From: Armatimonadota bacterium
Lineage (GTDB): Bacteria > Armatimonadota > Zipacnadia > Zipacnadales > UBA5352
Direction of reading: 5' to 3'
Length of the DNA stretch: 45,816 nt
Assembly: GCA_049975765.1 (NCBI GenBank)
Contig: JBNGDZ010000003.1
Span: 6,269-52,084, forward strand
A program made the translations under genes and the position numbers. Shown one piece after another: positions 12,321 to 36,383 of the stretch (its first letter is position 1; each line of letters opens with the position of its first letter). The notes under the pieces were generated by a model. The model did no database searches. It saw only the letters and a program-made list of their open reading frames with translations, and had not been told where the DNA came from.

Positions 12321-14587
12321 TCGCCCAGCGCCGCCCGCTCGGCGGGTATACGGTGCTCGACGATCTCCCGCAGTCCCTCCAGCTTGCGCTCGATCAGCTC
12401 CCGGTTGATCATGTAGCCGTACGCCTCTCCATGCCACCCCAGCCGGGAGTCCGCCTCGCACAGCGGGATCGCCGAGGAGGCGTTCTCGAGCTCGTCGCGG
12501 CAGATAAGGTCCATGCGCTCGAGAAGCGTCCGCCTCTCGGCAGGATCAGCGGAGTCGTGGAAGGCGTTGCGGGCCAGCAGAAAGTCCGTGACGTTCGCGG
12601 CGCTGACAAGCTGGGAGAGGCAGAAGCGCGCCACGCCGATCTCCCGGGCGAGCTGCTCCCGGGGCCATCCCTCCGCTCGCTCGAGCGCCGGCTCCATCAG
12701 GTCCAGGCCCTCAGCCCACTGCTCGGCGACCGCCCGGTAGCACTCCACCACCTTCCCGGCGCCGAAGGGGCTCACCCAGTCCAGCAGATCGCCCTTCACG
12801 TCGGTGTCGAGCATCCATGAGCGGGGGAACTTGCGGTCGATCTGATCGAAGACGAAGTGGAAGGCCGGGCCGCGGGAGACCGGTCCGTAGTACATCACCG
12901 GGATGCTGGTGGGGAAGTCATCCTGGGCCCGGCAGAGCCTCTCCCAGCCCGCGACCATGATCTCGGCGGCCTCCGGGCCGAAGTGCCTCGCGGCAACGCT
13001 GGTCAGCGCCTCCTCGACCGCTGGCTGCGGCTCCCAGGTCATCTCCCCGGCTACCTCGGTGGCCAGTGAGGGCATGTTGCCGAAGTTCCAGCAGGTCATC
13101 ATGCCCGTGCAGCCGGCCTGCACCAGCGCCTGCCACTTGCGCGCTATCTTCTGCAGCGCCGGCAGGTAGGGCACGTCGGGGTTCTCGTGCGTGGTCCCGA
13201 TCTGGACCTTGGCGTAGACGGGCAGGTTCCGCTCGCGCTGGAAGTCGGCAACCCCTGTGAAGCGCGGTGAGGGGCCGATGACCTTGATGGAGTACTCGTC
13301 GTTCGTGTACTCGAAGTCCAGCGCCGAGGTCGGCTGCCCGCGCTCGAAGTCGCCCATCACAATGACATCGTCCGGAAGCTGCTCCAGCACGCCGCGCTGG
13401 GGGTCGGGCTCGTACATGTTCCAGCTCCAGTTCCAGGCGATGACCTCGGCCCCGGGCCTGGCGGCCTTCACGCCGTCGCGGATGAGGGTGATGATCTCAC
13501 CGACGACCTCCTGCGGCGTGCGCTGGGCGCAACGCGGGCAGAGCTGGCCCTCCTCGATCATCTCCTCAAGCTGCTCGGCGCTGCCGGGGCGCTTGGTGTG
13601 GCAGTAGCAGTGGCTGGGGTACTCCGACGCGGTGATCAGCAGCACCCCGGCGAGCTCCGGGACCTGCGTGAAGACGTACTCGCAGGACTGGGACAGGTAG
13701 TCCTTGACCTCCTGGGTGCTGCTGCACAGGTAGTTGACCGGCTTGAGGTGGCACAGGGGCCCCTTGACCTGCGGGTGCCGCTGCCAGAACGGGTCGTCCT
13801 CATCCAGGCCCATGGGCTCATTGAGGTAGAGGAAGACGCGGATGCCGAAGCGCGCGGCTCGCCGGCAGAGGCGCTGCAGCTCGGACAGGATGCGCTCGGC
13901 GTCCGCCCCGAACTCCGGGAAGACCTCGCACTTCGCGAACTTGCGCAGGGCGCCGCGGATCCAGATGCCGTTGAAGCCGTGCATCGCCAGCCGCAGCAGC
14001 AGGTTGTCGTCGTAGAAGGAGTCGGGTCCTGCATCCTCCTCGATCCACGCCGGGTACTCGCACTTCGTCTCCCGCCACCTGCTCTCGAAGGGCGGGCCGG
14101 CATAGCCGGTCAGCTCCTCGACGTAGAACGGTGACAGCGGCGAGCGGTGGATCCGGTGCCGGAACAGCGGCCTGCGCGTCTCCTCCACGGCCGGCACGAA
14201 GGGCCCGCCGCGCTCGCGCATCAGCCCGATGAGTCGGAAGACGCCGTGCAGCACCCCGGCCCGCCCGGCCCCGCACACCTGGATGCCGTCCTCGGAGATG
14301 TACAGGGCGTGGGCCTCCGGATCGTCGCCCGTATCCGGCTCGATGCGCAGCACGATCCGGCGCTCGGCGGCTCGGGCCCTGGGAACGCCGTATGACAGGT
14401 GCAGGACGTCCTCGAGCGTGTCCGCGGCGGCGGCAACGGCCGGCTCCTCGGCTTCGGCCACCACCTCCCATGAGCCATCGATGCGCACATCACCCGCCTG
14501 GGGCCGCGCGCCCGGGCGGTAGGCGATCTCAGTCCACAGCGGCGAGCGAAGGTCGGTCGAGAACGGGATGGTATCAGCCAGCTTCAT
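12317..14587 (-). CDS. Putative glycoside hydrolase: GH20b/GH67N-like N-terminal domain plus TIM-barrel-like core; family unknown
   Basis: Track ORF 12317..14659 trimmed to ATG 14587 (MKLADTIPF...), which has GGAGGA 8 nt upstream. The N-domain pattern (RRIVLRIEPDTGDDPEAHALYISEDGIQVCGAGRAGVLHGVFRLIGLM) is typical of hexosaminidase/glucuronidase N-domains. The core contains FNGIWIRG, RVFLYLNEP, and a Cys cluster (SHCYCH...CPRC) reminiscent of the DUF4838 cluster at 21714..24146. Confidence 0.6.
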   Translation of the reverse strand: MKLADTIPFSTDLRSPLWTEIAYRPGARPQAGDVRIDGSWEVVAEAEEPAVAAAADTLEDVLHLSYGVPRARAAERRIVLRIEPDTGDDPEAHALYISEDGIQVCGAGRAGVLHGVFRLIGLMRERGGPFVPAVEETRRPLFRHRIHRSPLSPFYVEELTGYAGPPFESRWRETKCEYPAWIEEDAGPDSFYDDNLLLRLAMHGFNGIWIRGALRKFAKCEVFPEFGADAERILSELQRLCRRAARFGIRVFLYLNEPMGLDEDDPFWQRHPQVKGPLCHLKPVNYLCSSTQEVKDYLSQSCEYVFTQVPELAGVLLITASEYPSHCYCHTKRPGSAEQLEEMIEEGQLCPRCAQRTPQEVVGEIITLIRDGVKAARPGAEVIAWNWSWNMYEPDPQRGVLEQLPDDVIVMGDFERGQPTSALDFEYTNDEYSIKVIGPSPRFTGVADFQRERNLPVYAKVQIGTTHENPDVPYLPALQKIARKWQALVQAGCTGMMTCWNFGNMPSLATEVAGEMTWEPQPAVEEALTSVAARHFGPEAAEIMVAGWERLCRAQDDFPTSIPVMYYGPVSRGPAFHFVFDQIDRKFPRSWMLDTDVKGDLLDWVSPFGAGKVVECYRAVAEQWAEGLDLMEPALERAEGWPREQLAREIGVARFCLSQLVSAANVTDFLLARNAFHDSADPAERRTLLERMDLICRDELENASSAIPLCEADSRLGWHGEAYGYMINRELIERKLEGLREIVEHRIPAERAALGE

Positions 14588-14658
14588 ATGGTGATCCTCC
14601 AGATGCGGTCCCCGAGTCGGGAGCCAGCGGCGGTAGGCTCGATGGGCCGACAACGGCA

Positions 14659-15036
14659 TCAGCCGCTGCCGAAGCCTATAGTGGTGTAGTAGGCCAGCCT
14701 CTCCTGGCGGACGTCGGCGCGCCCGATCTGCGCCACCACGTTCACGGTGGAGCGCAGCCGCAGGGCGTACTGCCCGAAGGGGATCTCGAAGCCCCGGTCG
14801 CCCACCGGCCGGTCGAGCCGGAAGCAGCGCACCCGGCGCGCGGGCACCTCGACCTTCAGGCCCTCCTCGGGCTCCCGCTCGGCGAAGTAGACGTCGATCT
14901 CGATCTGCGCTCTCTCATCGCCAGTGTTGAGCACGATCAGGGACTCGTGCCCCTCCAGCGGCAGGTCGGGCTGGCCCCTGGGCGGGAGGTCCCCGTCGGG
15001 GAAGATCCACACGCGATGCCCCTCGCCGGCGCTCAT
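14659..15036 (-). CDS. Sensory rhodopsin transducer (ASRT) family protein
   Basis: 125 aa with AGGAGGG 7 nt upstream of the ATG. It aligns by eye along its whole length with Anabaena ASRT: GDLPPRG..HESLIVLNTGDERAQIEIDVYFAEREPE....VPARRV..FRLD........IP....YALRLRSTVNVVAQIGRADVRQ...AYYTTIGF. Confidence 0.8.
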   Translation of the reverse strand: MSAGEGHRVWIFPDGDLPPRGQPDLPLEGHESLIVLNTGDERAQIEIDVYFAEREPEEGLKVEVPARRVRCFRLDRPVGDRGFEIPFGQYALRLRSTVNVVAQIGRADVRQERLAYYTTIGFGSG

Positions 15037-15066: not shown

Positions 15067-15951
15067 TCAGTCCCAGCTCGCGGCAAGGTCGCGGGCGGTG
15101 GTGAAGTCCGCGCCGCGCTCATCGAGCAGGGTCAGCAGAACGCCGAGCTGCTCCAGCGCGTACTCGCCGCAGTTCTCCACCAGGAAGTAGTCGGGGATCA
15201 CGGTGCCCTCCCCGTAGTGCATCCTGGTGGGCATCTCGACGAACTCCCAGGGGTGGAAGTAGAAGCACAGGACCACGGGCTGCTCTCGCTCGCGCACGTA
15301 GCCGATGAAGGCGTCGATGTGGGTCATGAGACGGTCGGCGCTCTCGGTGCGGAACAGCGGCCACTGGTCGCGGTCTCGGCCGTACTGATCGGTGCTGTCG
15401 ATGGTCATGTCGGCGAAGTTGGGGATCTCCAAGATCCCCATCTCGCCCGGCTGCGTCCAGTCGTCGCGACTGGGGTGATACGGTGCCAGCCGCTCCTCGT
15501 AGTAGTAGAGCGGGTAGGAGGCGTCGGCGACGTACCCGAGCTCCTCCAGGGCGCTGATCACCGCCGTGCTGCCCCACAGACGCGGAGCCCGGAAGGACAC
15601 CGGCGAACTCCCCAGGCTCTCGGCCACCCACTGTGTGGCGACGCGCAGCCGCAGCGGCACCTCCTCGGGCAGCAGCGGCTTGACACCCGGGATCTCGAAG
15701 ATGGGGTCGCCGACCGTCTCGTGGTACAGGGAGTGGCAGCCCACCTCGTGGCCGCCGTCATCCACCGTCCGGACGATGTCAGGGAACTGGCGGGCGGCAT
15801 CGCCGGTGAAGAAGAACGTGCCGGTGGCCACGTGCTCCTCGAGCAGCTCCAGGATCAGCGGGGTTCCCTGCTGGATGCCCTCGTAGTAGGGCGACCAGCT
15901 ACCCACATCGGTCTCCATGTCAAAGCCCAGGACGACCGTGATGTCAGACAT
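15067..15951 (-). CDS. Polysaccharide deacetylase (CE4 / NodB homology domain)
   Basis: 294 aa. Contains VVLGFDMETDVG (Asp motif), TGTFFFTG and GHEVGCHSLYHE (His motif). GGAGA lies 6 nt upstream of the ATG. Confidence 0.85.
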   Translation of the reverse strand: MSDITVVLGFDMETDVGSWSPYYEGIQQGTPLILELLEEHVATGTFFFTGDAARQFPDIVRTVDDGGHEVGCHSLYHETVGDPIFEIPGVKPLLPEEVPLRLRVATQWVAESLGSSPVSFRAPRLWGSTAVISALEELGYVADASYPLYYYEERLAPYHPSRDDWTQPGEMGILEIPNFADMTIDSTDQYGRDRDQWPLFRTESADRLMTHIDAFIGYVREREQPVVLCFYFHPWEFVEMPTRMHYGEGTVIPDYFLVENCGEYALEQLGVLLTLLDERGADFTTARDLAASWD

Positions 15952-16069: not shown

Positions 16070-17233
16070 TTAGAGCTCGATGACCTCCAGGAAGCGGTCC
16101 GACAGCATCTCCACGCCGTCGCTGGTGACGCGCACGCCATCCTCCCACCGCAGGCCGAAGTCCTCGGTGTAGAAGAAGGTATCCACCTGGAAGGTCATGT
16201 TCTCCTCGAGGAGGTACTCCGAGCTGCTCTCCATCCAGGGGCGCTCCACCTCCATCAGCCCGATGGAGTGGCAGGGCCCGTAGAGCATGTTCTCGGTGTA
16301 GCCCTTCTGCTCGACGAACTCCTCGTACTTGATGACGACCTGCTTCGCGGGGATGCCGGCCCGCATCAGCTCCATGGTCTTGTGGTGGGCCTCCAGCCCC
16401 ACCTCCACCAGCTCACGCATGGCGTCGGGCATCGGGCCGAAGCACACGGGCCGGCCCACGGAGGAGGAGTAGCCGCTGACGAGGGCCCCGATGTTGAGCT
16501 GGATCATCTCGCCCTCGCAAAGCTCCGCGGCGCTGGGCCGGCCGATGGCGTGGGTGCTCGCCTCCCCGCTGAGCACGTAGGTGGGATGGCCCTCGTACTC
16601 CGCGCCGGCGGCGTACATGGCCCCCTGGGCGATGCCCACCACCTGCTGCTCGGTCATCCCCGGCTTCATCTGCTCCAGGACCACCTCGGTGGCCTCCTCG
16701 CTGATGCGGAAGGCCTCGCGCATGCAGGCGATCTCGTTCTCGCTCTTGACCTGGCGCATCTCGGTCAGCAGGTCGTCGGCCCGCACCACCTCTGCGTCGC
16801 CCGCCGCCGCCTCGATGGCGCTGTAGATGGTCATGGGCATGACCGACAGCCCCGCGATGCCGCTGCGGCTCACCTCGCCGTCGGCCACCGCGGCGAAGAC
16901 GTCCTCGAAGGTGTCCAGCTTCATGCCGGGGTAGTCCGGCTCCGCGGACTCCCGGTACTGGAGGATCTGCATGATCGTCGAGATGCGGCTGCGGTCCTCG
17001 GCGAAGGTGAGACTCTCCGGGCCGATGAGCAGCGCCGGCTCGCCGCTGCGCCCGATGGCCACTCCTCCGGTCTCGAACAGCGGCCAGTAGTCCGAGAGGT
17101 AGCGCACGTTGGCCGGGTCGGCCTCGTGACCGTGGGCGATGACCACATCGAGGTCCTGCTCGGCCATCTTCTCCTGCAGCCTATGCCATCGCTGTTCGAA
17201 CTCGGAATCAGGGATCGACGGTGTCGGTGCCAT
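16070..17233 (-). CDS. M24-family metallopeptidase (Xaa-Pro peptidase/creatinase fold)
   Basis: Track ORF 16070..17449 trimmed to ATG 17233 (MAPTPSIPDSEFEQRWHRLQEKMAEQDLDVVIAHG), which has AGGAGG 8 nt upstream. Creatinase-N-like N-domain, then a pita-bread domain: GMTEQQVVG...GHPTYVLSGEAS...GEMIQLNIGALVSGYSSSVGRPV...HSIGLMEVERPW. Confidence 0.85.
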   Translation of the reverse strand: MAPTPSIPDSEFEQRWHRLQEKMAEQDLDVVIAHGHEADPANVRYLSDYWPLFETGGVAIGRSGEPALLIGPESLTFAEDRSRISTIMQILQYRESAEPDYPGMKLDTFEDVFAAVADGEVSRSGIAGLSVMPMTIYSAIEAAAGDAEVVRADDLLTEMRQVKSENEIACMREAFRISEEATEVVLEQMKPGMTEQQVVGIAQGAMYAAGAEYEGHPTYVLSGEASTHAIGRPSAAELCEGEMIQLNIGALVSGYSSSVGRPVCFGPMPDAMRELVEVGLEAHHKTMELMRAGIPAKQVVIKYEEFVEQKGYTENMLYGPCHSIGLMEVERPWMESSSEYLLEENMTFQVDTFFYTEDFGLRWEDGVRVTSDGVEMLSDRFLEVIEL

Positions 17234-17472
17234 GCTCGTGGCCTCCTGATGGTGAGATTCGGCGCCGGCCGCCTGGCTGGGGCCGGTCCGGGAGTTCTGC
17301 CTCGTCGCGTGACTCACCTGGTGTCGAAACACGACCATCTGTCGGGGGCCTACTTTCGCCGACGCATCGGCTGTCTCCTGCCCGCACCCGGCGCCGGGAG
17401 AAGGGGATTGGAGGCGGAGCCGCGAAGTCCGTCCCACCCGCCCCATCACATCGAACAGGGAGAGAGCGGATA

Positions 17473-18600
17473 TTGGAGCTTGAGGGCGACGGTTGGAGAT
17501 ACTGGCAGCCGACTGAGATCGTGTTCGGTCCCGGGGTTCGACGGCAGCTTCCCGGAGTCATCTCGGAGCTTGGCGAATCGCCGGTGCTCGTGACCGACAG
17601 CGGGCTCGCCGAGCTTCCGCTCATCGAGGAGATCCGCGGCATACTCGGCCCCGGGACCCCCGTGTTCGCGGAGGTCGAGCCCAACCCCACGGTCGGGATG
17701 GTGGACGCGCTGGCGCGGACCATCCGCGAGCAGGATATCGACGTCGTCGTGGCCGCAGGCGGCGGAAGCTCCATGGACTGCGCGAAGGTCGCCTGCTCCG
17801 TGGCGGTGCAGGGCGGTCTCGCCCGGCAGTATCACTCCGAGGGGGCCACGCTCGACGACAGGCATCTGCCGCTTGTCGCCATGCCGACCACCGCCGGCAC
17901 CGGCAGCGAGGTGACGCCCAACGCGGTGCTCGGCGACCCGGAGAAGGGCGTCAAGGCCCCGCTGGTGCATGAGAACTTCTACCCCACCGTGGCGCTGATC
18001 GACGCCGAGGTGACGGCCTCCATGCCGCCGACGGTGACCGCCTCCACCGGCTTTGATGCCCTGGCCCACGCGGTGGAGGGCTACTGGTCGAAGAACCACC
18101 AGCCCATCTGCGACCTCTTCGCGCGGGAGGCGGTGAGGCTGGTCTTCGACTACCTGCCCCGGGCGCTGGAGGAGCCGGCGGACACGGAGGCCCGGGAGGG
18201 CATGTCGATGGCGGCGCTGTTCGGCGGGCTCGCCTTCCAGGCGCCCCAGAACGCGGCCGTGCATGCCTGCTCATTCCCGTTCTCCGCTACATATCACCTG
18301 CCGCACGGAACGGCCTGCGCCATGACGCTGGATCACTTCATCCGCTTCAACGCCCCGGCCATGGGTGAGCGGGGGCAGGCGCTGGCGCGGGCGGCCGGCT
18401 GCCAGGACATGCTGGAGTTCGCCGACGAGGTGGCGCGGATGAAGGCCGCCTCGCCCCTGCCCACGACGCTGGGCGAGATCGGCGTGACGGAGGAGGACAT
18501 CGACGACATCGTTGAGAGCAGCTTCCACCCGCTGATGGACAACAACCCGCGAGAGGTCACCCGCGACGACCTCCGCGAGATCTACCGCAGCATGCTGTGA
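17473..18600 (+). CDS. Iron-containing (group III) alcohol dehydrogenase
   Basis: Fe-ADH motifs: VVAAGGGSSMDCAKV, PLVAMPTTAGTGSEVTPNAV, GFDALAHAVEGY, HACSFPFSATYHLPHGTACA. The track ORF (17221..18600) has no Met near the conserved N-terminus. I chose in-frame TTG 17473 (LELEGDGWRYWQPTEIVFGPG), which has GGGAGAGAG upstream. The start is uncertain by tens of nt. Confidence 0.85.
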   Translation: MELEGDGWRYWQPTEIVFGPGVRRQLPGVISELGESPVLVTDSGLAELPLIEEIRGILGPGTPVFAEVEPNPTVGMVDALARTIREQDIDVVVAAGGGSSMDCAKVACSVAVQGGLARQYHSEGATLDDRHLPLVAMPTTAGTGSEVTPNAVLGDPEKGVKAPLVHENFYPTVALIDAEVTASMPPTVTASTGFDALAHAVEGYWSKNHQPICDLFAREAVRLVFDYLPRALEEPADTEAREGMSMAALFGGLAFQAPQNAAVHACSFPFSATYHLPHGTACAMTLDHFIRFNAPAMGERGQALARAAGCQDMLEFADEVARMKAASPLPTTLGEIGVTEEDIDDIVESSFHPLMDNNPREVTRDDLREIYRSML

Positions 18601-18611
18601 GGAGAGGTCAC

Positions 18612-19475
18612 ATGCCGGAACGATTCGACAGAGAGAGGTTCGATGACCTGGCGGGCGAGTTCCGCTACGTCATGACCGACATGATCTGCCGCTCCGGCTC
18701 CGGCCACCTGGGCGGGTCGCTGAGCCTGGTGGAGATCATGATCACGCTCTACTGGCGGATCATGAGGTATGATCCCGACAACCCGAAGTGGGAGGGCCGC
18801 GACCGCCTGGTGCTCTCCAAGGGCCACGCCGGGCCGGTGCTCTACGTGGCCCTGGCCTACCAGGGCTTCTTCCCCAAGGAGGAGCTGAAGACCATCAATG
18901 CCAACGGCACGCGGCTGCCAAGCCACGTAGATCGGCTGCAGACGCCGGGCGTGGACATGACCGCCGGGTCGCTGGGGCAGGGGCTGTCATGCGCCTGCGG
19001 CTTCGCCATGGCCGGGCGCATCCGGAAGCAGGACCACACGGTGTTCTGCATCGTGGGCGACGGCGAGAGCGACGAGGGCATGATCTGGGAGGCCGCCATG
19101 TTCGCCGGCCACAAGGGGCTCGACAACCTCGTGGCGATCACCGACTACAACAAGCTGCAGATCGACGGCTTCACGGACGAGGTCATCACCCTCGAGCCGC
19201 TCGTGGACAAGTGGCGGGCCTTCAACTGGGAGGTCATGGAGATGGACGGCCATGACTGGGACGACATCTACGACACCATCACCGCCGCCCAGCAGGTTGC
19301 CGGCAAGCCCACCATGATCATCGCCCACACCTGCAAGGCCCGTGACTGCACGGTGGCCGAGAATCGCCCGGAGAGCCACAACATCAAGATCCCGGACGAG
19401 GAGACCTTCGAGAGGTACATGTGCGGCCTGAGGCGCCAGGACTACACTCTCCCCTACGAGGTCGAACAGTCATGA
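18612..19475 (+). CDS. Transketolase, N-terminal (TPP-binding) subunit of a split enzyme
   Basis: Contains SGSGHLGGSLSLVEIM, DRLVLSKGHAGPVLY and CIVGDGESDEGMIWEA..FAGHKGLDNLVAITDYNKLQIDG. ATG 18612 has GGAGAGG upstream. Confidence 0.9.
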   Translation: MPERFDRERFDDLAGEFRYVMTDMICRSGSGHLGGSLSLVEIMITLYWRIMRYDPDNPKWEGRDRLVLSKGHAGPVLYVALAYQGFFPKEELKTINANGTRLPSHVDRLQTPGVDMTAGSLGQGLSCACGFAMAGRIRKQDHTVFCIVGDGESDEGMIWEAAMFAGHKGLDNLVAITDYNKLQIDGFTDEVITLEPLVDKWRAFNWEVMEMDGHDWDDIYDTITAAQQVAGKPTMIIAHTCKARDCTVAENRPESHNIKIPDEETFERYMCGLRRQDYTLPYEVEQS

Positions 19476-20428
19476 CCGATGTCCCGCTGCACGAGCTTGA
19501 GATGCGCGAGGTCTACGCCCTGACGCTGGTGGACCTGGCGGACAGCGACCCCGACATCGTCGTCGTGGAGGCCGACCTGGGCAAGGCCTCCGGCACCATC
19601 CCGACCTACTCGGAGGCCCACCCGGAGCGCTTCATCGACACCGGGGTGGCCGAGGCCGACATGATCGGTATCGGGGCCGGCCTGGCGGTGGATGGGATGA
19701 TCCCCTTCTGCGCCAGCTTCACACCCTTCGCCACCCGGCGGACCTACGACGCCATCACCATCTCGGTGGCCTACGCCGACGCCAACGTGAAGATCGTTGG
19801 CACCGCACCGGGCATCACCACAGGGGCCAACGGCGGCACCCACATGTGCTTCCAGGACTTGGCGATCATGCGGGTGATGCCCAACATGGTAGTCTTCTCG
19901 CCCTGTGACGTCTACGAGCTGTCATCGTGTGTGCGATGGATGGCGGAGTACGCCCACCCGGCCTACATGCAGATGATCCGCCCGGTGCAGCCGCAGATCT
20001 TCGACGAGGACTACGTCTTCGACCCCGAGACGGCGGTGCGACTGAGCGAGGGCGACGCGGCCACGCTGGTAAGCACCGGATGGACCACGCAGTTCGCGAA
20101 GCAGGCCGCCGAGGAGCTTGCTGAGGAGGGCATCGCCGTCGATCACCTCCACTACGCCTCCGTCAAGCCCTTCGATGAGGAGAGCCTGCTCGAGTCGGCG
20201 CGCAGGACCGGCTGGGTGGTGACCGTCGAGAACCAGAGCGTGATCGGCGGCCTCGGCGGCGCGGTCTGCGAGGTGCTCTCCGAGAGGCTGCCCACTCCGG
20301 TGAAGCGCCTGGGCGTCCACGACCAGTTCGGGGAGGTCGCCACCGAGGAGTACCTTCTCAATAAACACGAGATGAACGTCGAGCACATCAAGCGAGCCTG
20401 CAAACAGGGAGAGGGAAAACCACAATGA
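19472..20428 (+). CDS. Transketolase, C-terminal (pyrimidine-binding) subunit
   Basis: Contains FIDTGVAEADMIGIGAGLA.DGMIPFCASFTPFATRRTYD and GGTHMCFQDLAIMRVMPNMVVFSPCD. ATG 19472 forms an ATGA overlap with the upstream stop. Confidence 0.9.
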   Translation: MTDVPLHELEMREVYALTLVDLADSDPDIVVVEADLGKASGTIPTYSEAHPERFIDTGVAEADMIGIGAGLAVDGMIPFCASFTPFATRRTYDAITISVAYADANVKIVGTAPGITTGANGGTHMCFQDLAIMRVMPNMVVFSPCDVYELSSCVRWMAEYAHPAYMQMIRPVQPQIFDEDYVFDPETAVRLSEGDAATLVSTGWTTQFAKQAAEELAEEGIAVDHLHYASVKPFDEESLLESARRTGWVVTVENQSVIGGLGGAVCEVLSERLPTPVKRLGVHDQFGEVATEEYLLNKHEMNVEHIKRACKQGEGKPQ

Positions 20429-20925
20429 GGGTCGTCGTCGGCTCAGTCGTCAAGGGCTTCCTGCTCAAGAGCGCCGTCAGGGAGTGGCTGGAGGAGAACG
20501 GGCACGAGGTGATCGACGTCGGCTGCCACGACACCTCGACCTTCGTGAAGTTCCCGTCGATCGCCGAGCGCGCCGCGCGTGTGCTGCAGCAGGGCGAGGC
20601 CGAGCGCGGCATCCTCTGCTGCGGCTCCGGCACCGGAATGGGCCTGGCCGCGGGCAAGTTCGAGGGGATCTGCGCCGTCCCATGCGAGAGCCCCATGGCC
20701 GCGGAGTTTGCACGCACGGTGAACGACGCCAACGTCATGTGCATGGGCGAGAGCCTGGTCACGCCGGACATGGGCTGCCGGATGGCTGAGATCTTTCTGA
20801 CCGCCCAGTTCCAGGACGTGCCCGGCATCCCGCAGGAGGTCCTGGACTTCTGGGCGGAGGCCCGCGATGAGATCTGCGCTCGCGGCGATCTGGCCCGGGA
20901 GCGGGAGATGGAGACCCTGCAGTAG
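20425..20925 (+). CDS. RpiB/LacA/LacB-family sugar(-phosphate) isomerase
   Basis: 166 aa. Contains GILCCGSGTGMGLAAGKF.GI.A and NDANVMCMGE. Its start forms an ATGA overlap with the transketolase stop. Confidence 0.85.
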   Translation: MRVVVGSVVKGFLLKSAVREWLEENGHEVIDVGCHDTSTFVKFPSIAERAARVLQQGEAERGILCCGSGTGMGLAAGKFEGICAVPCESPMAAEFARTVNDANVMCMGESLVTPDMGCRMAEIFLTAQFQDVPGIPQEVLDFWAEARDEICARGDLAREREMETLQ

Positions 20926-20937
20926 CGGGTTGCGCAC

Positions 20938-21693
20938 GTGAGCGAGTTCACACGCTACGGGCTGGTCTTCCTGGTCGTCTTCCTGTCCAACTTCCAGGGC
21001 AGCATCACCGGCTTCGGAGCCACGGTGCTGTCGCTGCCCTTTGTGACGCTGCTCATCGGCCTGGACATGGCCGTGCCCGTGCTCGTGATGCAGGCCTGGC
21101 TGCTCGCCGTGCTCATCGTCATCGAGGCCTGGCGGCACATCCGCTGGCCCGCCTTCGGCAAGCTCTTGGGCTTCGTGGTAGTTGGGCTGCCAGTGGGCAT
21201 GTGGATGTCGGGCTACATGCCGGAGGGGCCGCTGAAGCTGGTCCTGGGGCTGTTCACGCTGGGGGTGGGTGTCCACGGCCTCATCCATCCGATGCCTGCA
21301 GACGTGGGCGCTGATGGACTGGACGGCTGGAAGGGTCGGGGCATTACCGCCCTGCTGCCGCTGGGTGGCGTCATCCACGGGGCCTTCGGCGCCGGGGGGC
21401 CGCTGATGGTCGTCTACTGCGCTCGGGCGCTTCCTGACAAGAGCCTCTTCCGCGTCACGATGAGCCTGCTGTGGCTGGTGCTGAACACGATCCTGATCGG
21501 CCGCTGGGCGGTCGCCGGGACGCTGACCATCGATGTCCTGCGCGTCGCCGGGATGTGCGTTCCCTTCACGCTCGCTGGACTGGCGCTGGGGGCGCCCGCG
21601 CATTACCGGGTGGATGAGCTGCTCTTTCGCCGGGTGGTCTACGGCGTGCTCATTGCCGCGGCGGTCGTGCTCCTGATCTCGGTCTTCAGATAG
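20938..21693 (+). CDS. TauE/SafE (TSUP) family anion exporter/permease
   Basis: 251 aa with a GTG start. Multi-pass membrane protein with an internally duplicated pattern (GSITGFGATVLSLPF ... GGVIHGAFGAGGPLMVVY) typical of TSUP/TauE proteins. Confidence 0.8.
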   Translation: MSEFTRYGLVFLVVFLSNFQGSITGFGATVLSLPFVTLLIGLDMAVPVLVMQAWLLAVLIVIEAWRHIRWPAFGKLLGFVVVGLPVGMWMSGYMPEGPLKLVLGLFTLGVGVHGLIHPMPADVGADGLDGWKGRGITALLPLGGVIHGAFGAGGPLMVVYCARALPDKSLFRVTMSLLWLVLNTILIGRWAVAGTLTIDVLRVAGMCVPFTLAGLALGAPAHYRVDELLFRRVVYGVLIAAAVVLLISVFR

Positions 21694-21713
21694 CGTCACC
21701 AGAGGTGCCTCTC

Positions 21714-24146
21714 ATGCAGACGCCGCCGCTCGCCGCGACCGTCACGATCGTCCTGCTGGCCGTGTCGGCGGGCCTCGCCACTGCCAGCGTCACACCGGTC
21801 GAGAACCGCCGGCCACGCGGGGCCATACTGATCTCCCCCGATCCGTCGCCCACCGAGCAGTTCGCCGCGGAGGAGATTCAGCGCGTCGCGCGCCAGGCCA
21901 CCGGGGCTGAGCTGCCGATCGTGAGCCAACCGCCTGACGGCCCGTTCATCTCCGTGGGGCGCACCGAACCGGCCGCCGATCTCGGCTACGAGGCTGACGC
22001 CGCCTCCCCTGACCCATATCTCATCCGCACTCTCGGGGAGGGCGTCTTCGTAATAGGCCGTGGCGATCGTGGCACCATCTATGCGGCCTATGACCTCCTG
22101 CGTCGCTTCCTCGGCGTGCGGTGGATCATGCCCGGCGACGCCGGCGAGATCATCCCGCAGAGCGATGACTTCACGGTGCCTGACGTGGACATCGACGAGT
22201 CGCCCGCCTTCAGATTCCGCATCGCCTCGGGCTTCCGCAGCCCGGAGTACGTGGACTGGGCGATCAGGAACCGGCTGCATATCCTGTCGCAGACCCCGGC
22301 GAGCTGGGGCGACCCCGAGATGGCCAAACGCGGCGGGTATATGAAGGGAACGATGCACCACGCCTTCGACGGCCTGCTCCCCGAGGCAGAGTACTTCGAG
22401 GAGCACCCGGAGTGCTACGCCCTCCGCGATGGTGTGCGCCGGGCGGGCCGGGGCACGCAGATCTGCGTCTCCAACCCCGACGTGAGGCGGATCGTCGCCG
22501 AGAAGGCCGTCGAGTACTTCGACCAGCACCCGGAGGCCACGTTCTTCTCGCTGTGCCCCAACGACAATCAGAACTGGTGCGAGTGCGACGCCTGCACCGC
22601 CTATGACACCGAGACCATGGAGCGCTGGGGCAGGACCTTCCCGGTCGTCAGCGACCGCTACTTCGCCTTCGTCAACGAGGTGGCGGACAGACTCGCGCAG
22701 GAGCATCCCGGCAAGCTCCTTTACACCTTCGCCTACCAGAACTACACCTGGCCGCCGAAGACGCACCTGCCGCGCCCCAACGTCATCGTCAGCCTCTGCC
22801 ACATGGTTCCGGCGTGCTACTCGCATCCGCTGACCGACGAGGAGTGCGAGAGGAACCGGCAGTTCAACGCGCTTCTTTCGGACTGGGCCGGGGTGCACGA
22901 GAACATGTGGTACTACGCCTACACCTGTAAGTCGATGTGGGAGCAGATGCCGTGGCCCATCGCTCGCCGGCTGGCGGCTGACATCCGGCGGCTGCACGAG
23001 GCCGGCTTCCAGGGCTTCTTCTCCCAGGGCTGGGAGTGGGTCTGGGGCCAGCTCGGCGTAAACTTCCGGGTGATGGCGCAGATGCTGTGGGACCCGGAGA
23101 CCGACGTTGAGGCCGCGCTGGACGAGTACTTCGACCTGGCCTTCGGCCCGGCGTCGCCGGCGATGCACGAGTTCTACCAGGCCGTGGAGGAGGCCTTCAC
23201 CGCGCCGGACGTTCACGTCCACCACGAGGTCGGCGAGTGGGGCGAGAAGGTCCTGCCGCCCCAGACGCGACGGAGGGCCACGGCCGCTCTGGAGCGGGCG
23301 CGTGAGCTGGCCGGCGGCGACCAGACGCTGCTGACGCGCATCGCGCCGGTGGCGGCGGCATACCGCTACGCCGAGCTGCGCGTGGAGGGGCTGGAGGCCG
23401 AGCGGCGCTGGCGCCGGACCGGGGACGTCGAGGCCCTCCAGCGCGCCACCGAGGCCTACTCCGAGATCATGCAGATCGCGGAGGCCAACCCCGGCGGCGA
23501 GGCGCTGCGGATCCACTCGGTCAACCGCTACGTGCGGCCCCGCTACGAGGCGATGCTGCTGCCCTATGACGCGCTGATCGCTCCGGAGGACCGGCGGCGC
23601 TACGAGTGGACGGAGGTCATGGCGGAGTCCTTCGAGCTCACCCCGGCCCAGCTCGCGGGTCGGTGGCAGATCCCCGACGAGGAGGATGCGGAGTACGGCA
23701 TCGAGCTTTCGACCTCGCGGGCCTCTGATGGCGAGACGTCGCTGCGGCTGTGGTCGGCGGTGCAGTCCGAGAACTCCGATCGCTGGACGGCGCTGCAGAG
23801 CGACTGGGTCATCGTGAACGCCATCAGCGAGCGCATCCCGGTCGAGCCCGGCGAGGCGATCCTGGTCACCGCCCGGGTGTTCGTGCCCGAGGACCTGCAG
23901 ATGACCTCGCGCGGAGCGACGCTTGGGCTCATCGGCTGGGACGAGCAGGGCGGCAATCCCAGGGGGTGGAGCGCCGGCTCCACCGAGGTCACGCAGCAGC
24001 CGCATACAGAGGGCTGGCGGCAGATGGCCGTCGGGCGGATCGTCCCGGGCAACGTCGAGAGGCTGGCCGTGCGCCTGGCCATCTGCGGGCTGGGAGAGTG
24101 CTACGTGGACCAGGTCCGCGTTCTGCGTGGAGCACCCGTACAGTAG
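21714..24146 (+). CDS. DUF4838-type putative glycoside hydrolase (GH20b-like N-domain), secreted
   Basis: Signal peptide. N-domain: AAEEIQRVARQATGAELPIV...YLIRTLGEGVFVIGRGDRGTIYAAYDLLRRFLGVRW. Also has the characteristic FFSLCPNDNQNWCECDACTAYD cluster. ATG 21714 has AGAGG 8 nt upstream; the track start 21705 is GTG. The 823-aa antisense ORF 21696..24167 is rejected. Confidence 0.75.
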   Translation: MQTPPLAATVTIVLLAVSAGLATASVTPVENRRPRGAILISPDPSPTEQFAAEEIQRVARQATGAELPIVSQPPDGPFISVGRTEPAADLGYEADAASPDPYLIRTLGEGVFVIGRGDRGTIYAAYDLLRRFLGVRWIMPGDAGEIIPQSDDFTVPDVDIDESPAFRFRIASGFRSPEYVDWAIRNRLHILSQTPASWGDPEMAKRGGYMKGTMHHAFDGLLPEAEYFEEHPECYALRDGVRRAGRGTQICVSNPDVRRIVAEKAVEYFDQHPEATFFSLCPNDNQNWCECDACTAYDTETMERWGRTFPVVSDRYFAFVNEVADRLAQEHPGKLLYTFAYQNYTWPPKTHLPRPNVIVSLCHMVPACYSHPLTDEECERNRQFNALLSDWAGVHENMWYYAYTCKSMWEQMPWPIARRLAADIRRLHEAGFQGFFSQGWEWVWGQLGVNFRVMAQMLWDPETDVEAALDEYFDLAFGPASPAMHEFYQAVEEAFTAPDVHVHHEVGEWGEKVLPPQTRRRATAALERARELAGGDQTLLTRIAPVAAAYRYAELRVEGLEAERRWRRTGDVEALQRATEAYSEIMQIAEANPGGEALRIHSVNRYVRPRYEAMLLPYDALIAPEDRRRYEWTEVMAESFELTPAQLAGRWQIPDEEDAEYGIELSTSRASDGETSLRLWSAVQSENSDRWTALQSDWVIVNAISERIPVEPGEAILVTARVFVPEDLQMTSRGATLGLIGWDEQGGNPRGWSAGSTEVTQQPHTEGWRQMAVGRIVPGNVERLAVRLAICGLGECYVDQVRVLRGAPVQ

Positions 24147-24191: not shown

Positions 24192-25736
24192 ATGAGGCCG
24201 ATGGCCGGTATCGTCGTGACGCTGGCGGCGGCGATCTCAGCGACCGGCAGCACATGGGCCAATGACGCGCGCGAGATCGGCGGGAATAAGCAACTCTTCA
24301 TCGATGAGGACTTCATTGAGGCGATGGAGGGGGTCCGGTTCACGCTCAACCCCGCGCGCAGGGCAGGCGAGGTGCTGCGCGCTGACGCACCCTGGGAGCC
24401 GACGGGACTTGGATACGTCACTGTCCTTCGCGATGCTGACCGATTCCGGATGTACTATGGGAGCTGGTACTGGCACCCCGACATCAAGGGCCACTGGATG
24501 GACAGGGTGGCGTATGCGGAGTCCGAGGACGGAATCCACTGGGAGAAGCCGAGCCTGGGACAGGTCGAGTTCGAGGGATCCGCGGACAATAACCTCATCA
24601 TGGTCGGGAAGTGCGGCGGTTACGTGCACGGAGGCTCCGTCCTCATCGACCCGCACGCGGCCTCGCCAGATGAGAGGTACAAGATGATCTTCGGGGACTT
24701 CTATCGGATCTACCCCTATGAGGGCTGCCCTCAGCACACCAGCATCAGCGGCGCCGTCTCCGCCGACGGGATTCACTGGAGATCCATCGACACCCCCCAC
24801 GGCCTGCTGTTCCCCTCAGGCGGCACCGACACCCAGAACGTGTGCTTCTGGGACCCGTACATCGAGAGGTACGTCGCCTACGTCCGCGTTAACGTCTATC
24901 GCCGCGACGAGGAGGGCAGGCCCGTCGGTCAGGCATCGCGGCGCATCGGCCGCAGCGAATCCGAGGTGTTCCGGGAGTTTCCGCCGGCGGTGGAGATCGC
25001 CGCTCCCGACGCGGACGATCCCGGCGGTGAGTGGGGCTGCGGTCTCTACAACTCCGCCGCCAGCATCTATCCCTTCGCGCCGGGCGTCTACCTCTTCTTC
25101 CCCTCAGTCCATCACTACGACACGGGGCTATGCGAGATCATGTTCGCCAGCAGCCGCGACGGCATTCACCTCGACCGCCGCTTCCGGCAGGCGTACGTGC
25201 CCATCGATCCCGGCGCCAGGCGGCTCGGCGAGCAGATCGGCTACTCGGCGTACATGGGCCCGGGCATGATCCGCGTCGGCGATGAGCTGTGGATGTACGG
25301 CGTGGAACACGAGACCCCGCACAACGGCCGGTGGTACGGCCGGAGGATCCCGGGCGCCATCCACCGCTACGCGCAGCGGCTCGATGGCTTCGTCTCCCTC
25401 GATGCTGCCGGAAGGCCAGGCACGGTGACGACGAAGCCCTTCGTGCTCCGGGGAACGCGGCTTGAGATCAACGCGAACGCCGATGTGGCCCCGCCCAACC
25501 CGCCAGACGAGGTCGGCAGCTCCATCACCGTGGAGCTTCTCGACCTCGATGGCGAGGTGCTCGCTACCTCGGAGGCGATCCATGGCGACGGCGTGGCGCT
25601 TACGCCCGTGTGGCGTGAGGGCGCCGACCTCTCCCAGCACCTTGGGCAGGCGGTCCGCCTGCGCTTCCGGCTGGACATGGCGAAGCTCTACGCCATCCAG
25701 ATCGCGGACGCCGAGCCGGTCGCCATCCGGCGGTAG
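24192..25736 (+). CDS. Secreted beta-propeller glycoside-hydrolase-like protein (GH32/43/117 clan-like)
   Basis: Signal peptide MRPMAGIVVTLAAAISATGSTWA. Contains KQLFIDEDFIE, RMYYGSWY, AYAESEDGIHWEKP and SADGIHWRS, a pattern of repeated buried Asp/Trp blades. The exact family is undeterminable by eye. Confidence 0.6.
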   Translation: MRPMAGIVVTLAAAISATGSTWANDAREIGGNKQLFIDEDFIEAMEGVRFTLNPARRAGEVLRADAPWEPTGLGYVTVLRDADRFRMYYGSWYWHPDIKGHWMDRVAYAESEDGIHWEKPSLGQVEFEGSADNNLIMVGKCGGYVHGGSVLIDPHAASPDERYKMIFGDFYRIYPYEGCPQHTSISGAVSADGIHWRSIDTPHGLLFPSGGTDTQNVCFWDPYIERYVAYVRVNVYRRDEEGRPVGQASRRIGRSESEVFREFPPAVEIAAPDADDPGGEWGCGLYNSAASIYPFAPGVYLFFPSVHHYDTGLCEIMFASSRDGIHLDRRFRQAYVPIDPGARRLGEQIGYSAYMGPGMIRVGDELWMYGVEHETPHNGRWYGRRIPGAIHRYAQRLDGFVSLDAAGRPGTVTTKPFVLRGTRLEINANADVAPPNPPDEVGSSITVELLDLDGEVLATSEAIHGDGVALTPVWREGADLSQHLGQAVRLRFRLDMAKLYAIQIADAEPVAIRR

Positions 25737-34158: not shown

Positions 34159-34179
34159 TATGATGCGAGGAGGTGCAGC

Positions 34180-36356: not shown

Positions 36357-36383
36357 TGAGGGGCAAGAGGAGCATGATGCAGG

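Follow-up and report, generated by a model that had tools for sequence, protein, structure and literature searches.

A five-gene cassette as a candidate divergent form of the sulfoglycolytic transketolase pathway

The sulfoglycolytic transketolase (sulfo-TK) pathway cuts sulfonated sugars into C2 pieces, and among its described components SqwI belongs to PF02502, SqwF belongs to PF00465 and SqwE is a sulfite/sulfonate transporter (PMC9594981, PMC11659671, PMC12890257). The canonical clusters act on sulfoquinovose (SQ), a sulfo-sugar far more abundant than any other (PMC12890257). They hold genes for a DUF4867 protein, a GH31 enzyme, an ABC transporter, a FucI-like isomerase, the two transketolase subunits TK-N and TK-C, an RpiB protein, an exporter, an aldehyde dehydrogenase (ALDH) and a ligase. 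Here we describe a cassette that is probably an undescribed relative of this pathway, found in a window comprising the whole analysed stretch of 45,816 nucleotides.

The cassette and its predicted chemistry

The following genes make up the cassette:

17473 to 18600, plus strand: Fe-dependent alcohol dehydrogenase (Fe-ADH; PF00465 and PF25137)
18612 to 19475, plus strand: TK-N, transketolase N-terminal, ThDP-binding subunit, SqwG-like (PF00456)
19472 to 20428, plus strand: TK-C, transketolase C-terminal subunit with pyrimidine-binding and C domains, SqwH-like (PF02779 and PF02780)
20425 to 20925, plus strand: RpiB/LacAB-fold aldose-ketose isomerase of a 166-aa family, SqwI-like (LacAB_rpiB, PF02502)
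20938 to 21693, plus strand: TauE/SafE (TSUP) membrane transporter (PF01925, E 9e-22)

The initial annotation had proposed a tightly packed five-gene unit, and all five open reading frames were indeed found on the plus strand with Pfam matches to the families it had named. The packing and the ATGA overlaps were read directly from the sequence, the one at 19472 coupling TK-C to TK-N and the one at 20425 coupling the isomerase to TK-C. The start codon of Fe-ADH is TTG 17473, preceded by a ribosome-binding site of GGGAGAG type. For TK-N the start is most likely ATG 18612, 11 nt past the ADH stop and with GGAGAGG 5 nt upstream, rather than the overlapping GTG 18597; its orthologs are 281-287 aa long. 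The TauE start is GTG 20938, 12 nt past the isomerase stop.

We give a probability of roughly two in three (0.68) that the cassette encodes a divergent sulfo-TK pathway with a general mechanism of five steps. A C6 sulfo ketohexose would be cleaved by the split ThDP-dependent transketolase with transfer of the C1-C2 ketol to glyceraldehyde-3-phosphate, and this first cut would yield xylulose-5-phosphate and a C4 sulfo-aldose. The RpiB-fold isomerase would turn the latter into a C4 ketose, from which a second transketolase round would leave a C2 sulfo-aldehyde. The TauF/SqwF-like dehydrogenase would reduce this aldehyde to the alcohol, for which the TauE protein is a candidate exporter; import is also possible. 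The substrates and the direction of TauE transport are those that we infer. The sulfur group is most likely, if tentatively, a C-sulfonate, in which case sulfoacetaldehyde would be reduced to isethionate.

Enzymes of the cassette compared with their relatives

The resemblance to sulfo-TK is, judged from the sequences, one of homology beyond shared Pfam names. TK-N is 47-50% and TK-C 39-44% identical to the corresponding subunits of canonical sulfo-TK loci. Against PDB 6YAK, a generic split transketolase, TK-N scored 247 bits, with about half of the residues identical by a rough count on the printed alignment. The likeness to the SqwGH type is no greater than that to generic 6YAK, a point against the sulfo-TK explanation.

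The same point favours a module free of sulfur, in which a 6-deoxy, tetrose or tetritol sugar would be converted to acetaldehyde or glycolaldehyde and TauE would be a generic membrane protein. The dehydrogenase bears on this reading from both sides. It falls far under the cutoff of every NCBIfam equivalog, yet its best PDB match is BkTauF (6JKO/6JKP; E 2e-94, 320 bits, 43% identity), with the second-best match at 198 bits and FucO at 158 bits. BkTauF is a specific sulfoacetaldehyde reductase without activity on ethanol, ethylene glycol or ethanolamine (PMC6616044). Clustering with lactaldehyde, propanediol or glycerol dehydrogenases, which had been named as evidence that would speak against the pathway, was not seen, BkTauF being the nearest solved relative by a wide margin. 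The TauF residues F252 and F265 are retained, whereas the T257 that is essential in BkTauF is replaced by Asn in 9 of 9 ADHs examined from the clade to which the cassette belongs. Fe-ADH is described here as a candidate Fe/Zn-dependent reductase of TauF/SqwF type acting on the C2 sulfo-aldehyde.

The isomerase belongs to a 166-aa family with 55-89% identity across phyla, held by only 10 loci when 185,579 species genomes were scanned. Many of its next-best matches (39-46% identity) are isomerases of canonical sulfo-TK clusters from Acholeplasma, Tenericutes, Erysipelotrichaceae and Bacillota. SqwI and housekeeping RpiB genes reach equal scores in this band, so that residue signatures, not identity, mark the SqwI type. 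At ten active-site positions in E. coli numbering (D9, H10, Y43, C66, T68, H99, N100, R133, H134 and R137) the three types read:

Housekeeping RpiB: DHYCTHNRHR
SqwI type: DKFCTINLER
166-aa isomerase family: VVFCSVN(I/V)PV

The 166-aa family retains the catalytic Cys and Asn and lacks D9, H10, Y43, H99, R133, H134 and R137, and with them the phosphate-binding and ring-opening residues of RpiB. Loss of H10, Y43, H99, R133 and H134 is common to this family and the SqwI of canonical clusters, while D9, K10 and R137 of SqwI are all replaced by Val. An RpiB-family isomerase in sulfo-TK, which the initial annotation had put forward with some doubt, agrees with the placement of SqwI in PF02502 (PMC9594981, PMC11659671, PMC12890257).

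A housekeeping pentose-phosphate tkt and rpiB pair, with an ADH gene and a gene for a membrane protein as chance neighbours, would account for the Pfam and NCBIfam names, which are transketolase and RpiB. The seven substitutions at conserved active- and phosphate-site positions make this very improbable, as do isomerase scores of 109 and 120 bits where the rpiB equivalog cutoffs are 139 and 135 bits, respectively, and the patchy occurrence of the cassette, which only 10 of 185,579 species representatives carry and which moves from one unrelated gene context to another. The missing residues settle this for the isomerase without recourse to the whole genome. For the sulfur-free module it may be added that the RpiB family includes erythrulose-4-phosphate isomerases, to whose model NF051858 the isomerase scored 74 bits; against it, the isomerase is without the phosphate-binding residues that an enzyme acting on sugar phosphates requires.

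Members of the TauE family are functionally heterogeneous and their functions poorly defined. This suits the sulfur-free module and is a point against the sulfo-TK explanation, as is locus L010, in which the isomerase-TauE pair is present with no transketolase nearby. By blastp clustering the TauE gene lies directly 3' of the isomerase gene in 13 of 15 loci, and an anion carrier (TauE or DASS) is adjacent in almost all loci, contrary to what a sulfur-free module leads one to expect. Together with the aldehyde dehydrogenase scores given below, these observations make that module quite unlikely.

Flanking genes, related loci and the entry substrate

The cassette is surrounded by the following genes, of which the M24 and CE4 genes are given for context only:

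21705 to 24146, plus strand: secreted DUF4838 glycosidase with a GH67N/GH20b-like N-domain (PF16126, E 7e-66)
24192 to 25736, plus strand: secreted five-bladed beta-propeller protein, GH130/GH43/GH32-like, with a C-terminal beta-sandwich (514 aa)
16070 to 17449, minus strand: divergent M24 creatinase/prolidase-like hydrolase (PF00557/PF01321)
15067 to 15951, minus strand: divergent CE4 deacetylase without signal peptide (PF01522)
10233 to 12461: exported sulfatase

An M24 gene is also found near the cassette in L181. The DUF4838 gene, whose product has a hydrophobic N-terminus, starts 11 nt past the TauE stop, and the 514-aa gene follows 45 nt further on. No terminator-like site was found on the plus strand between 16900 and 26200, and the transcription unit probably extends beyond TauE into the DUF4838 gene. 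The beta-propeller protein has 1228 homologs and gave no Pfam match and no PDB sequence match; its AlphaFold model (pLDDT 90) has GH130 mannoside phosphorylases, GH43 and GH32 enzymes as top Foldseek matches. Its gene is not conserved as a partner of the cassette in related loci. The flanks had been described as uncharacterised glycoside hydrolase-like proteins and a sulfatase: the genes are there and the propeller fold is confirmed, but "uncharacterised" does not hold for DUF4838, as PF16126 includes GH163 and the GH185 6-sulfo-beta-GlcNAcase (PMC10570127).

No GH31, YihS or SqvD homolog was found in the window, as the initial annotation had reported. Nor did the window yield an SQ isomerase, a sulfoquinovosidase, a DUF4867 protein or an importer, which counts against the sulfo-TK explanation. 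The DUF4838 glycosidase, a candidate for release of the substrate sugar, and the beta-propeller protein are the only candidate entry enzymes there.

We compared 31 loci of the cassette's clade with about 30 canonical sulfo-TK loci. The three genes for TK-N, TK-C and isomerase keep a collinear order in 25-28 of the 31, in at least 5 phyla and between unrelated flanks; the arrangement is not due to chance. The hosts are Armatimonadota, Verrucomicrobiota, Victivallales, WS1 and Zipacnadia. GH31 YihQ and DUF4867 occur in none of the 31 loci and are nearly universal beside the transketolase of the canonical loci. The absence of all known SQ entry genes suggests that the cassette probably takes a sulfo-sugar other than SQ, in support of the earlier proposal of a variant pathway that starts from another substrate.

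Ordinary sulfo-TK of SQ would require the SQ isomerase, sulfoquinovosidase and importer to be encoded elsewhere, or the 166-aa isomerase to perform both SQ-to-SF and SE-to-SEu conversion. The abundance of SQ favours this reading, and so do the five-gene unit moving as a self-contained block, the GFO and AP_endonuc_2 genes common to the clade and canonical L030, and distant SqvD/SftI-like isomerases encoded 3' of the isomerase gene in L020, L096, L101 and L180. The latter score 104-155 bits on NF048012 in L020, L096 and L180 (L101 was found by tblastn only), far under the 700-bit cutoff. Further neighbours are a NagB-like deaminase (8/31), Amidohydro_2 (7/31), class II aldolase (7/31) and, in several loci, cytoplasmic FGly-type sulfatases, of Cys type and in the same operon in L014 and L178. 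None of these has a role in described SQ pathways, a point against the sulfo-TK explanation as a whole, and with the active-site substitutions that set the clade apart from SQ-validated enzymes they render the SQ reading unlikely. ROK proteins (378-383 aa), candidate regulators, are present in 12 of the 31 loci with a weak HTH_24 match in L007 only; that of the canonical Bacillota locus L030 has a clear HTH domain.

The general mechanism would also serve for a 6-O-sulfated sugar, above all 6-sulfo-N-acetylglucosamine (6S-GlcNAc), the ester standing in for phosphate. This reading departs from the preferred one solely in what the sulfur group is; it is counted within the probability given above and is possible, if somewhat unlikely. 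A DUF4838 or GH20-type sulfoglycosidase would free 6S-GlcNAc, a deacetylase (CE4, PIG-L or Amidohydro_2) and a NagB-like deaminase would lead to fructose-6-sulfate, and transketolase and isomerase would remove two C2 units. The resulting sulfo-oxy-acetaldehyde would become 2-hydroxyethyl sulfate for TauE export, or lose its sulfate to a cytoplasmic sulfatase. Catalysis by PF16126 enzymes is substrate-assisted and requires a 2-acetamido group (PMC10570127). DUF4838 glycosidases (GH163/GH185-type) recur in the clade, adjoining the cassette in L016 and L021 as in the window. The NagB homolog matches GlcN6P deaminase profiles (E 9e-30) and retains the catalytic DEY and GHxxFN motifs with its ATGGTP phosphate loop changed to PVGP; in L177 it adjoins a PIG-L deacetylase and an MFS importer. 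The Amidohydro_2, ROK and Cys-type sulfatase genes, nearby heparinase II/III and KduI genes, the missing YihQ and DUF4867 and the isomerase and ADH active sites unlike the SQ type all fit, and the literature examined gave no account of the fate of released 6S-GlcNAc. On the other hand, DUF4838 is a diverse family and the GlcNAc specificity of this member is putative, no NagB-like or Amidohydro_2 gene was found in the window, and a literature search found no precedent for fructose-6-sulfate or erythrose-4-sulfate metabolism. There would also be little point in throwing away two carbons when the ester is open to hydrolysis by a sulfatase. The entry substrate may be a C-sulfonate sugar or, alternatively, a hexosamine with a 6-O-sulfate.

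Comparison with the canonical pathway

In the verrucomicrobial sister loci L007/L017 and L105, genes for ALDH, ligase subunits and a DASS carrier take the place of ADH and TauE. The ALDH scored 522 bits on SauS, the acylating sulfoacetaldehyde dehydrogenase, against 346-363 on the acetaldehyde dehydrogenase EutE, where canonical SqwD-position genes reach 503-517 bits on SauS; it is 58-63% identical to the latter genes, with the exception of the L112 gene at 68%. Between the ligase subunits and SqwKL-position genes the identity is 49-68%. This set mirrors the known oxidative variant of sulfo-TK. Resembling SauS, SqwD and SqwKL as closely as the enzymes of true SQ clusters do, the ALDH and ligase argue for sulfoacetaldehyde itself and against a sulfate ester.

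The ADH, TK-N, TK-C, isomerase and TauE of the cassette match SqwF, SqwG, SqwH, SqwI and SqwE in family and order (PMC9594981, PMC11659671, PMC12890257), and TK-N, TK-C and the isomerase stand in the same order as in canonical SQ clusters. The entry route differs from the canonical one of YihQ, SqvB and SqvD on SQ, and on the evidence of residues and gene content the cassette forms a clade separate from canonical sulfo-TK. Substrate-contacting residues of the isomerase and reductase differ systematically between this clade and the SQ-validated type, suggesting that the intermediates may differ as well.

Gene content of the probable transcription unit

The five cassette ORFs lie on the + strand at 17473-21693, in a window of about 68% G+C, and all have high third-position G+C. 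Two genes follow closely, the DUF4838 gene starting 11 nt past the TauE stop and the gene of a 514-aa protein 45 nt further on. No terminator-like site was found on the cassette strand across the unit, and the cassette transcription unit probably comprises all seven genes.

Genes of the probable transcription unit (position, strand, product)
17473-18600, +, Fe-type alcohol dehydrogenase (ADH; PF00465, PF25137)
18612-19475, +, transketolase N subunit (TK-N; PF00456)
19472-20428, +, transketolase C subunit (TK-C; PF02779, PF02780)
20425-20925, +, LacAB/RpiB isomerase (PF02502)
20938-21693, +, TauE/SafE protein (PF01925)
21705-24146, +, DUF4838 protein, full-length PF16126 (E 7e-66) preceded by a GH67N/GH20b-like domain
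24192-25736, +, secreted 514-aa protein from a family of 1228 homologs without a Pfam model

Both ATGA overlaps reported in the initial annotation (19472 and 20425) were read in the sequence, the first joining the PF00456 ORF to the PF02779/PF02780 ORF of a split ThDP-dependent transketolase. The ADH start is a TTG at 17473, and for TK-N the ATG at 18612, with a GGAGAGG site, is preferred over the overlapping GTG at 18597.

DUF4838 had been taken as uncharacterised, which no longer holds since PF16126 includes GH163 (BT1035, an endo-beta-GlcNAcase) and GH185 (Sp_0475, an exo 6-sulfo-beta-GlcNAcase) (PMC10570127). Both families employ substrate-assisted catalysis and require the 2-acetamido group; GH185 falls in the cytoplasmic SSN cluster 3 and has the catalytic residues Q174, H227, D309 and Y436 (PMC10570127). 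In contrast to this cytoplasmic cluster, the DUF4838 protein of the window has a signal-like N-terminus and appears to be secreted. The 514-aa protein gave no Pfam match and no PDB sequence match, but its AlphaFold model (41-sequence alignment, pLDDT 90) displays a five-bladed beta-propeller and a beta-sandwich resembling GH130, GH43 and GH32 enzymes, which bears out at the fold level its earlier description as a beta-propeller GH-like protein. It is no conserved partner of the cassette. The window itself contributes five genes and two secreted glycosidase-like proteins to the evidence; accessory genes are known mainly from sister loci.

Elsewhere in the window, a 780-aa protein (12317-14659) is matched only by the GH20 domain-2 model, at its N-terminus. 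It aligns weakly but collinearly with the DUF4838 protein and could be a further glycosidase distantly related to GH20/DUF4838. Between its gene and that of a CE4 deacetylase, in a carbohydrate-type operon, lies an Anabaena sensory rhodopsin transducer homolog (14659-15036; PF07100, E 2e-30). An exopolysaccharide-biosynthesis-like block (1113-6889) encodes a Bac_transf priming transferase, two GT4 glycosyltransferases, a CE4-like protein and a sulfotransferase, so that the bacterium could itself produce a sulfated glycan. A NitT/TauT-type ABC importer (permease, ATPase and NMT1/SsuA-like binding protein) with a phosphate-porin-like gene occupies 31953-36356, at a distance of 11 kb from the cassette, with the gene of a MerR-HTH/thioredoxin_3 fusion protein in front of it. 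Substrates of this transporter family are aliphatic sulfonates, taurine or nitrate. The binding-protein and porin genes are doubled by an exact 2,423-bp tandem duplication (33961-36383 = 36384-38806). The copies are 100% identical, pointing either to an artefact of assembly or to a duplication that happened very recently.

Isomerase, transketolase and the C2 end

The make-up of the sulfoglycolytic transketolase (sulfo-TK) route, as outlined in the initial annotation, is confirmed by the literature. The route comprises the FucI-like sulfoquinovose (SQ) isomerase SqvD, the split transketolase SqwGH, SqwI (PF02502, with predicted activity), SqwF (PF00465) and the exporter SqwE, and in an oxidative variant the CoA-acylating aldehyde dehydrogenase SqwD and the ADP-forming ligase SqwKL (PMC9594981, PMC11659671, PMC12890257). 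Here, 31 loci of the window's clade (F-type) were compared with about 30 canonical sulfoquinovose loci (S-type; L028-L050 and L109-L123), chosen by full gene content as stand-ins for characterised Sqw sequences.

Isomerase residues at ten positions were tabulated in E. coli RpiB numbering, using what we take to be the E. coli reference sequence, which agrees with PDB alignments.

Isomerase residues at ten positions (E. coli RpiB numbering)
Housekeeping RpiB without adjacent transketolase, about 45 loci: D9 H10 Y43 C66 T68 H99 N100 R133 H134 R137
S-type SqwI, about 25 loci: D K F C T I N L E R
F-type including the window, 11 loci: V V F C S V N I/V P V

The F-type isomerase keeps the catalytic Cys66, Asn100 and the NDAN motif, and T68 is replaced by Ser. 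D9, H10, Y43, H99, R133, H134 and R137 are all seven replaced by hydrophobic residues or Pro; every phosphate-binding and furanose ring-opening residue is lost. The losses of H10, Y43, H99, R133 and H134 are common to SqwI, as are the motifs NDANxLCMG and CES, whereas the signature VV..V of the F-type stands against DK..R in the SqwI type. The window isomerase scores below the rpiB equivalog cutoffs; it has the same PF02502 fold as C. thermocellum RpiB (3HE8, 88 bits), but compared with RpiB/LacAB isomerases (E. coli RpiB, 3HE8, DerI/LerI) the F-type is longer by 35 residues at the C-terminus, where a FWAEARDE motif is conserved. It belongs to a highly conserved 166-aa family, the best 120 database clusters being 67-100% identical to it. 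Outside this family, identity in the species-genome scan described below falls abruptly to 46% or less, and many of the next-best matches are from loci of Acholeplasma, Tenericutes, Izemoplasmatales, Erysipelotrichaceae and Bacillota. Since housekeeping RpiB reaches equal identities, it is the residue signatures that tie the F-type to SqwI. Family and position, immediately 3' of the transketolase, also match SqwI. Judged by its residues, the window isomerase cannot be a housekeeping ribose-5-phosphate isomerase and is most plausibly a SqwI relative that has undergone further remodelling; that the cassette merely consists of housekeeping genes is very improbable.

The transketolase subunits of the window are 47-50% (TK-N) and 39-44% (TK-C) identical to those of canonical loci, and TK-N scores 247 bits against the generic split transketolase 6YAK. 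Being no closer to the S-type than to 6YAK, the transketolase is uninformative on sulfo-TK kinship, and so is its phosphate site, since the acceptor is phosphorylated in any model.

The best solved relative of the window ADH is 6JKO/6JKP (320 bits), followed by a match at 198 and FucO at 158 bits. 6JKO/6JKP is BkTauF, a sulfoacetaldehyde reductase without activity on ethanol, ethylene glycol or ethanolamine (PMC6616044). The window ADH is 43% identical to BkTauF over the full length and about 42% identical to the ADH in the SqwF position of a canonical locus. It keeps F252 and F265 of BkTauF, while the metal ligand Gln196 is His, a replacement reported as common (PMC6616044). T257, whose change to Ala nearly abolishes TauF activity (PMC6616044), is Asn in all nine F-type ADHs compared, in contrast to the SqwF-position ADH of one S-type locus, which keeps the Thr and is 51% identical to TauF. 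The TauE protein (PF01925) is conserved beside the F-type isomerase, the two forming the tightest unit among F-type loci, and is a candidate exporter; SqwE is itself described only as a sulfite/sulfonate transporter (PMC12890257).

Instead of ADH and TauE, the F-type loci L007/L017 and L105 of Verrucomicrobia encode an aldehyde dehydrogenase (ALDH), a two-subunit ligase and a DASS carrier. On the NCBIfam model for the acylating sulfoacetaldehyde dehydrogenase SauS these ALDHs score 522 bits, and S-type genes in the SqwD position 503-517 bits. The F-type ALDHs are 58-63% identical to the latter (68% to the one in L112), and the ligase subunits 49-68% identical to their S-type counterparts. With reductive ADH and TauE loci and oxidative ALDH and ligase loci, the F-type reproduces both sulfo-TK endings with homologous parts, and this is the strongest argument for a predicted C2 sulfo-aldehyde product. 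A sulfur-free transketolase module is unlikely.

Homology, synteny and the parallel oxidative variant together give good support to a sulfo-TK-type reading at the level of mechanism, to which we assign a probability of about 0.68. The transketolase would take two C2 units off a terminally sulfo-substituted ketose with a SqwI-like isomerisation between the two cleavages, a TauF/SqwF-like enzyme would reduce the C2 product, and the TauE protein would export it.

Distribution, neighbours and candidate substrates

When 185,579 species were scanned, each represented by one genome, the 166-aa isomerase family turned up in 10 of them only. All ten genomes are MAGs and belong to Armatimonadota, Verrucomicrobia, Victivallales and Candidatus Zipacnadia. 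The F-type also occurs in WS1 and is common in metagenomes, with at least 120 protein clusters at least 67% identical to the window isomerase; at least 13 F-type loci, mostly short, were among the matches listed in the metagenome scan.

Eroded cassettes were observed in WS1 (L004-L006: TK-C, isomerase and TauE, without TK-N) and in Armatimonadetes (L010-L013), L010 being an isomerase and TauE pair with a divergent sulfatase. Their isomerases are 71-75% identical to the window copy, and an identity held at this level suggests that the F-type isomerase is under selection independently of an adjacent transketolase.

Nearly all S-type loci contain SqvD, and most have the GH31 sulfoquinovosidase YihQ, DUF4867 and a solute-binding protein (SBP) beside the transketolase. 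YihQ and DUF4867 (SqvB) were found in 0 of 31 F-type loci, and tblastn gave no match in the window to the FucI-like SQ isomerase SqvD/SftI. A distant SqvD-like gene is present in only 4 of the 31; three such proteins score 104-155 bits on NF048012, compared with 204-428 for the S-type and a cutoff of 700. The proposal in the initial annotation of a variant pathway with another entry substrate is supported by these counts, and the active-site changes are consistent with it.

Neighbours within 10 kb of the 31 F-type loci (number of loci)
ROK proteins, 378-383 aa, probable regulators: 12
GFO/Idh/MocA: 9
NagB homolog: 8
Sulfatase: 7
Class II aldolase: 7
Amidohydro_2: 7
AP_endonuc_2: 5
SSF carrier: 4
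EamA carrier: 3
MFS carrier: 1
DUF4838: 3
KduI: 3

The NagB homologs match GlcN6P deaminases by profile (E 9e-30) and keep the DEY and GHxxFN catalytic motifs, while the ATGGTP phosphate loop is changed to PVGP. Some loci hold two copies, usually beside the class II aldolase and the transketolase cassette. The Cys-type sulfatases in or beside the cassette operon all carry a formylglycine motif and, having no signal peptide, are likely to be cytoplasmic. The sulfatase of the window (10233-12461) has a twin-arginine-like signal and lies in a separate operon.

NagB homologs and Cys-type sulfatases at F-type loci
NagB homologs: L021:1107-2069, L178:11285-12136, L177:13628-14467, L181:4735-5601, L102, L105, L020
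Sulfatases with CCPMR, operon-internal: L014:3381-4775, L178:1656-3029
Sulfatases with CNPSR: L010:8283-9803, L004:7314-8876

Two assignments were considered and dropped. The GFO/Idh/MocA proteins were not retained as NAD-dependent sulfoquinovosidases, their PDB matches, including 8QC2 and 8QC3, reflecting generic NAD-domain similarity only. ROK proteins as kinases for the class II aldolase were abandoned in favour of probable regulators; HTH evidence is a weak HTH_24 match in L007 only, and a clear HTH domain is present in the canonical L030.

The longest operon of the clade, L177:4879-18350, holds, in this order, GFO, ROK, ADH, TK-N, TK-C, isomerase, TauE, AP_endonuc_2, MFS, NagB-like, PIG-L deacetylase, KduI, GFO and GDSL lipase genes, and may encode a complete import-to-export route. 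Also recurrent near F-type cassettes are M24 creatinase/prolidase-like (L181), beta-lactamase-family (L006, L010, L018) and URO-D-like (L010, L181) proteins, with window members at 16070-17449, 27489-28589 and 38590-39843, respectively; these could be further pathway parts or merely reflect shared ancestry.

Free sulfoquinovose does not seem to be the substrate, judging from the consistent active-site changes and from the NagB-like, deacetylase, sulfatase and DUF4838 neighbours. Candidates are a natural C-sulfonate sugar that would be new, and 6-O-sulfated hexosamines. That the substrate is a C-sulfonate has, all variants counted, a little less than an even chance. On the SauS model, true SQ clusters and sister loci cannot be told apart by their ALDH and ligase, and a carbon-wasting route is sensible only if the sulfur group is non-hydrolysable; both points favour a C-sulfonate. 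Plain sulfoquinovose on the canonical route, counted within this estimate, is rather unlikely and a poor fit, the SQ entry genes being wholly absent.

A 6-O-sulfated hexosamine such as 6S-GlcNAc is a possible though less probable substrate. It would account for a number of features that have no explanation under a C-sulfonate, namely the DUF4838 gene, the NagB-like deaminase with its altered anion loop, the deacetylases, the cytoplasmic sulfatases, heparinase and KduI as neighbours, the active-site residues that differ systematically and, if NagC-like, the ROK proteins. Literature searches gave no precedent for such chemistry, and no report of fructose-6-sulfate or erythrose-4-sulfate metabolism; nor did they return a natural 6-sulfonated GlcNAc, or sulfo-TK in Verrucomicrobia. 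Tentatively, the cassette and its relatives could supply the cytoplasmic route, so far missing, by which 6-O-sulfated sugars are used intact, including 6-sulfo-GlcNAc freed by GH20 BbhII or GH185/DUF4838 sulfoglycosidases and heparan-type GlcNS6S, with the sulfate ester as a phosphate surrogate. Deacetylation and NagB-like deamination would yield fructose-6-sulfate, transketolase and RpiB-fold isomerase would remove two C2 units as xylulose-5-phosphate, and the leftover C2 sulfate ester would be reduced or oxidised and then exported. If true, this would be the sulfate-ester counterpart of sulfoglycolysis and would give a function to widespread NagB homologs without the phosphate loop.

A new C-sulfonate sugar or a 6-O-sulfated hexosamine would either way open a new branch of organosulfur carbohydrate metabolism, and the fate of 6S-GlcNAc after sulfoglycosidase release would become directly testable. 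Sulfo-TK clusters were first found via gene neighbourhoods of YihQ (PMC9594981, PMC12890257), and the F-type clade would escape such screens. One recent survey required an SQ isomerase match to call a sulfo-TK pathway, and surveys with this demand would under-count sulfo-sugar turnover and isethionate/sulfoacetate production in communities that harbour the F-type.

Comparison with known sulfo-TK systems

By gene order, loci like L048 and L030 are the canonical oxidative and reductive sulfo-TK clusters.

Gene order of two S-type loci
L048, oxidative: DUF4867, GH31, ABC permeases, SBP, FucI-like isomerase, TK-N, TK-C, RpiB, CitMHS, ALDH, ligase-beta, ligase-alpha
L030, reductive: EamA, Fe-ADH, ROK, FucI-like isomerase, DUF4867, TK-N, TK-C, RpiB, GFO ... 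GH31

Among the closest described likenesses of the cassette is the reductive sulfo-TK of Clostridium sp. MSTE9 (Liu et al. 2021), as outlined in PMC9594981, PMC11659671 and PMC12890257. Shared with that outline are a split transketolase directly followed by a PF02502 isomerase, a PF00465 protein as candidate reductase and a candidate exporter of sulfite/sulfonate type, and the implied logic is alike, with two C2 removals, an isomerisation between them and an excreted C2 sulfo-alcohol. The window cassette differs from it in having no FucI-like SQ isomerase, GH31 sulfoquinovosidase, DUF4867 protein or ABC importer. Its isomerase is 39-46% identical to those of canonical-type loci, and substrate-contact residues are altered in both isomerase and reductase. 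The hosts differ as well, the F-type being found in Armatimonadota, Verrucomicrobiota and Lentisphaerota and the canonical type in Firmicutes, Spirochaetes and Thermotogae.

The oxidative counterpart is the sulfo-TK of Acholeplasma sp. with SqwD and SqwKL (Chu et al. 2023, as cited in PMC11659671). L007/L017 and L105 resemble loci of this type, since the genes directly upstream of TK-N, TK-C and the isomerase encode an ALDH, a two-subunit ligase and an anion carrier, with 58-68% (ALDH) and 49-68% (ligase) identity and equal scores on the SauS model. In contrast to the Acholeplasma variant, ADH and TauE make the window cassette one of the reductive form, its sister loci use DASS and not CitMHS as carrier, and the entry genes differ.
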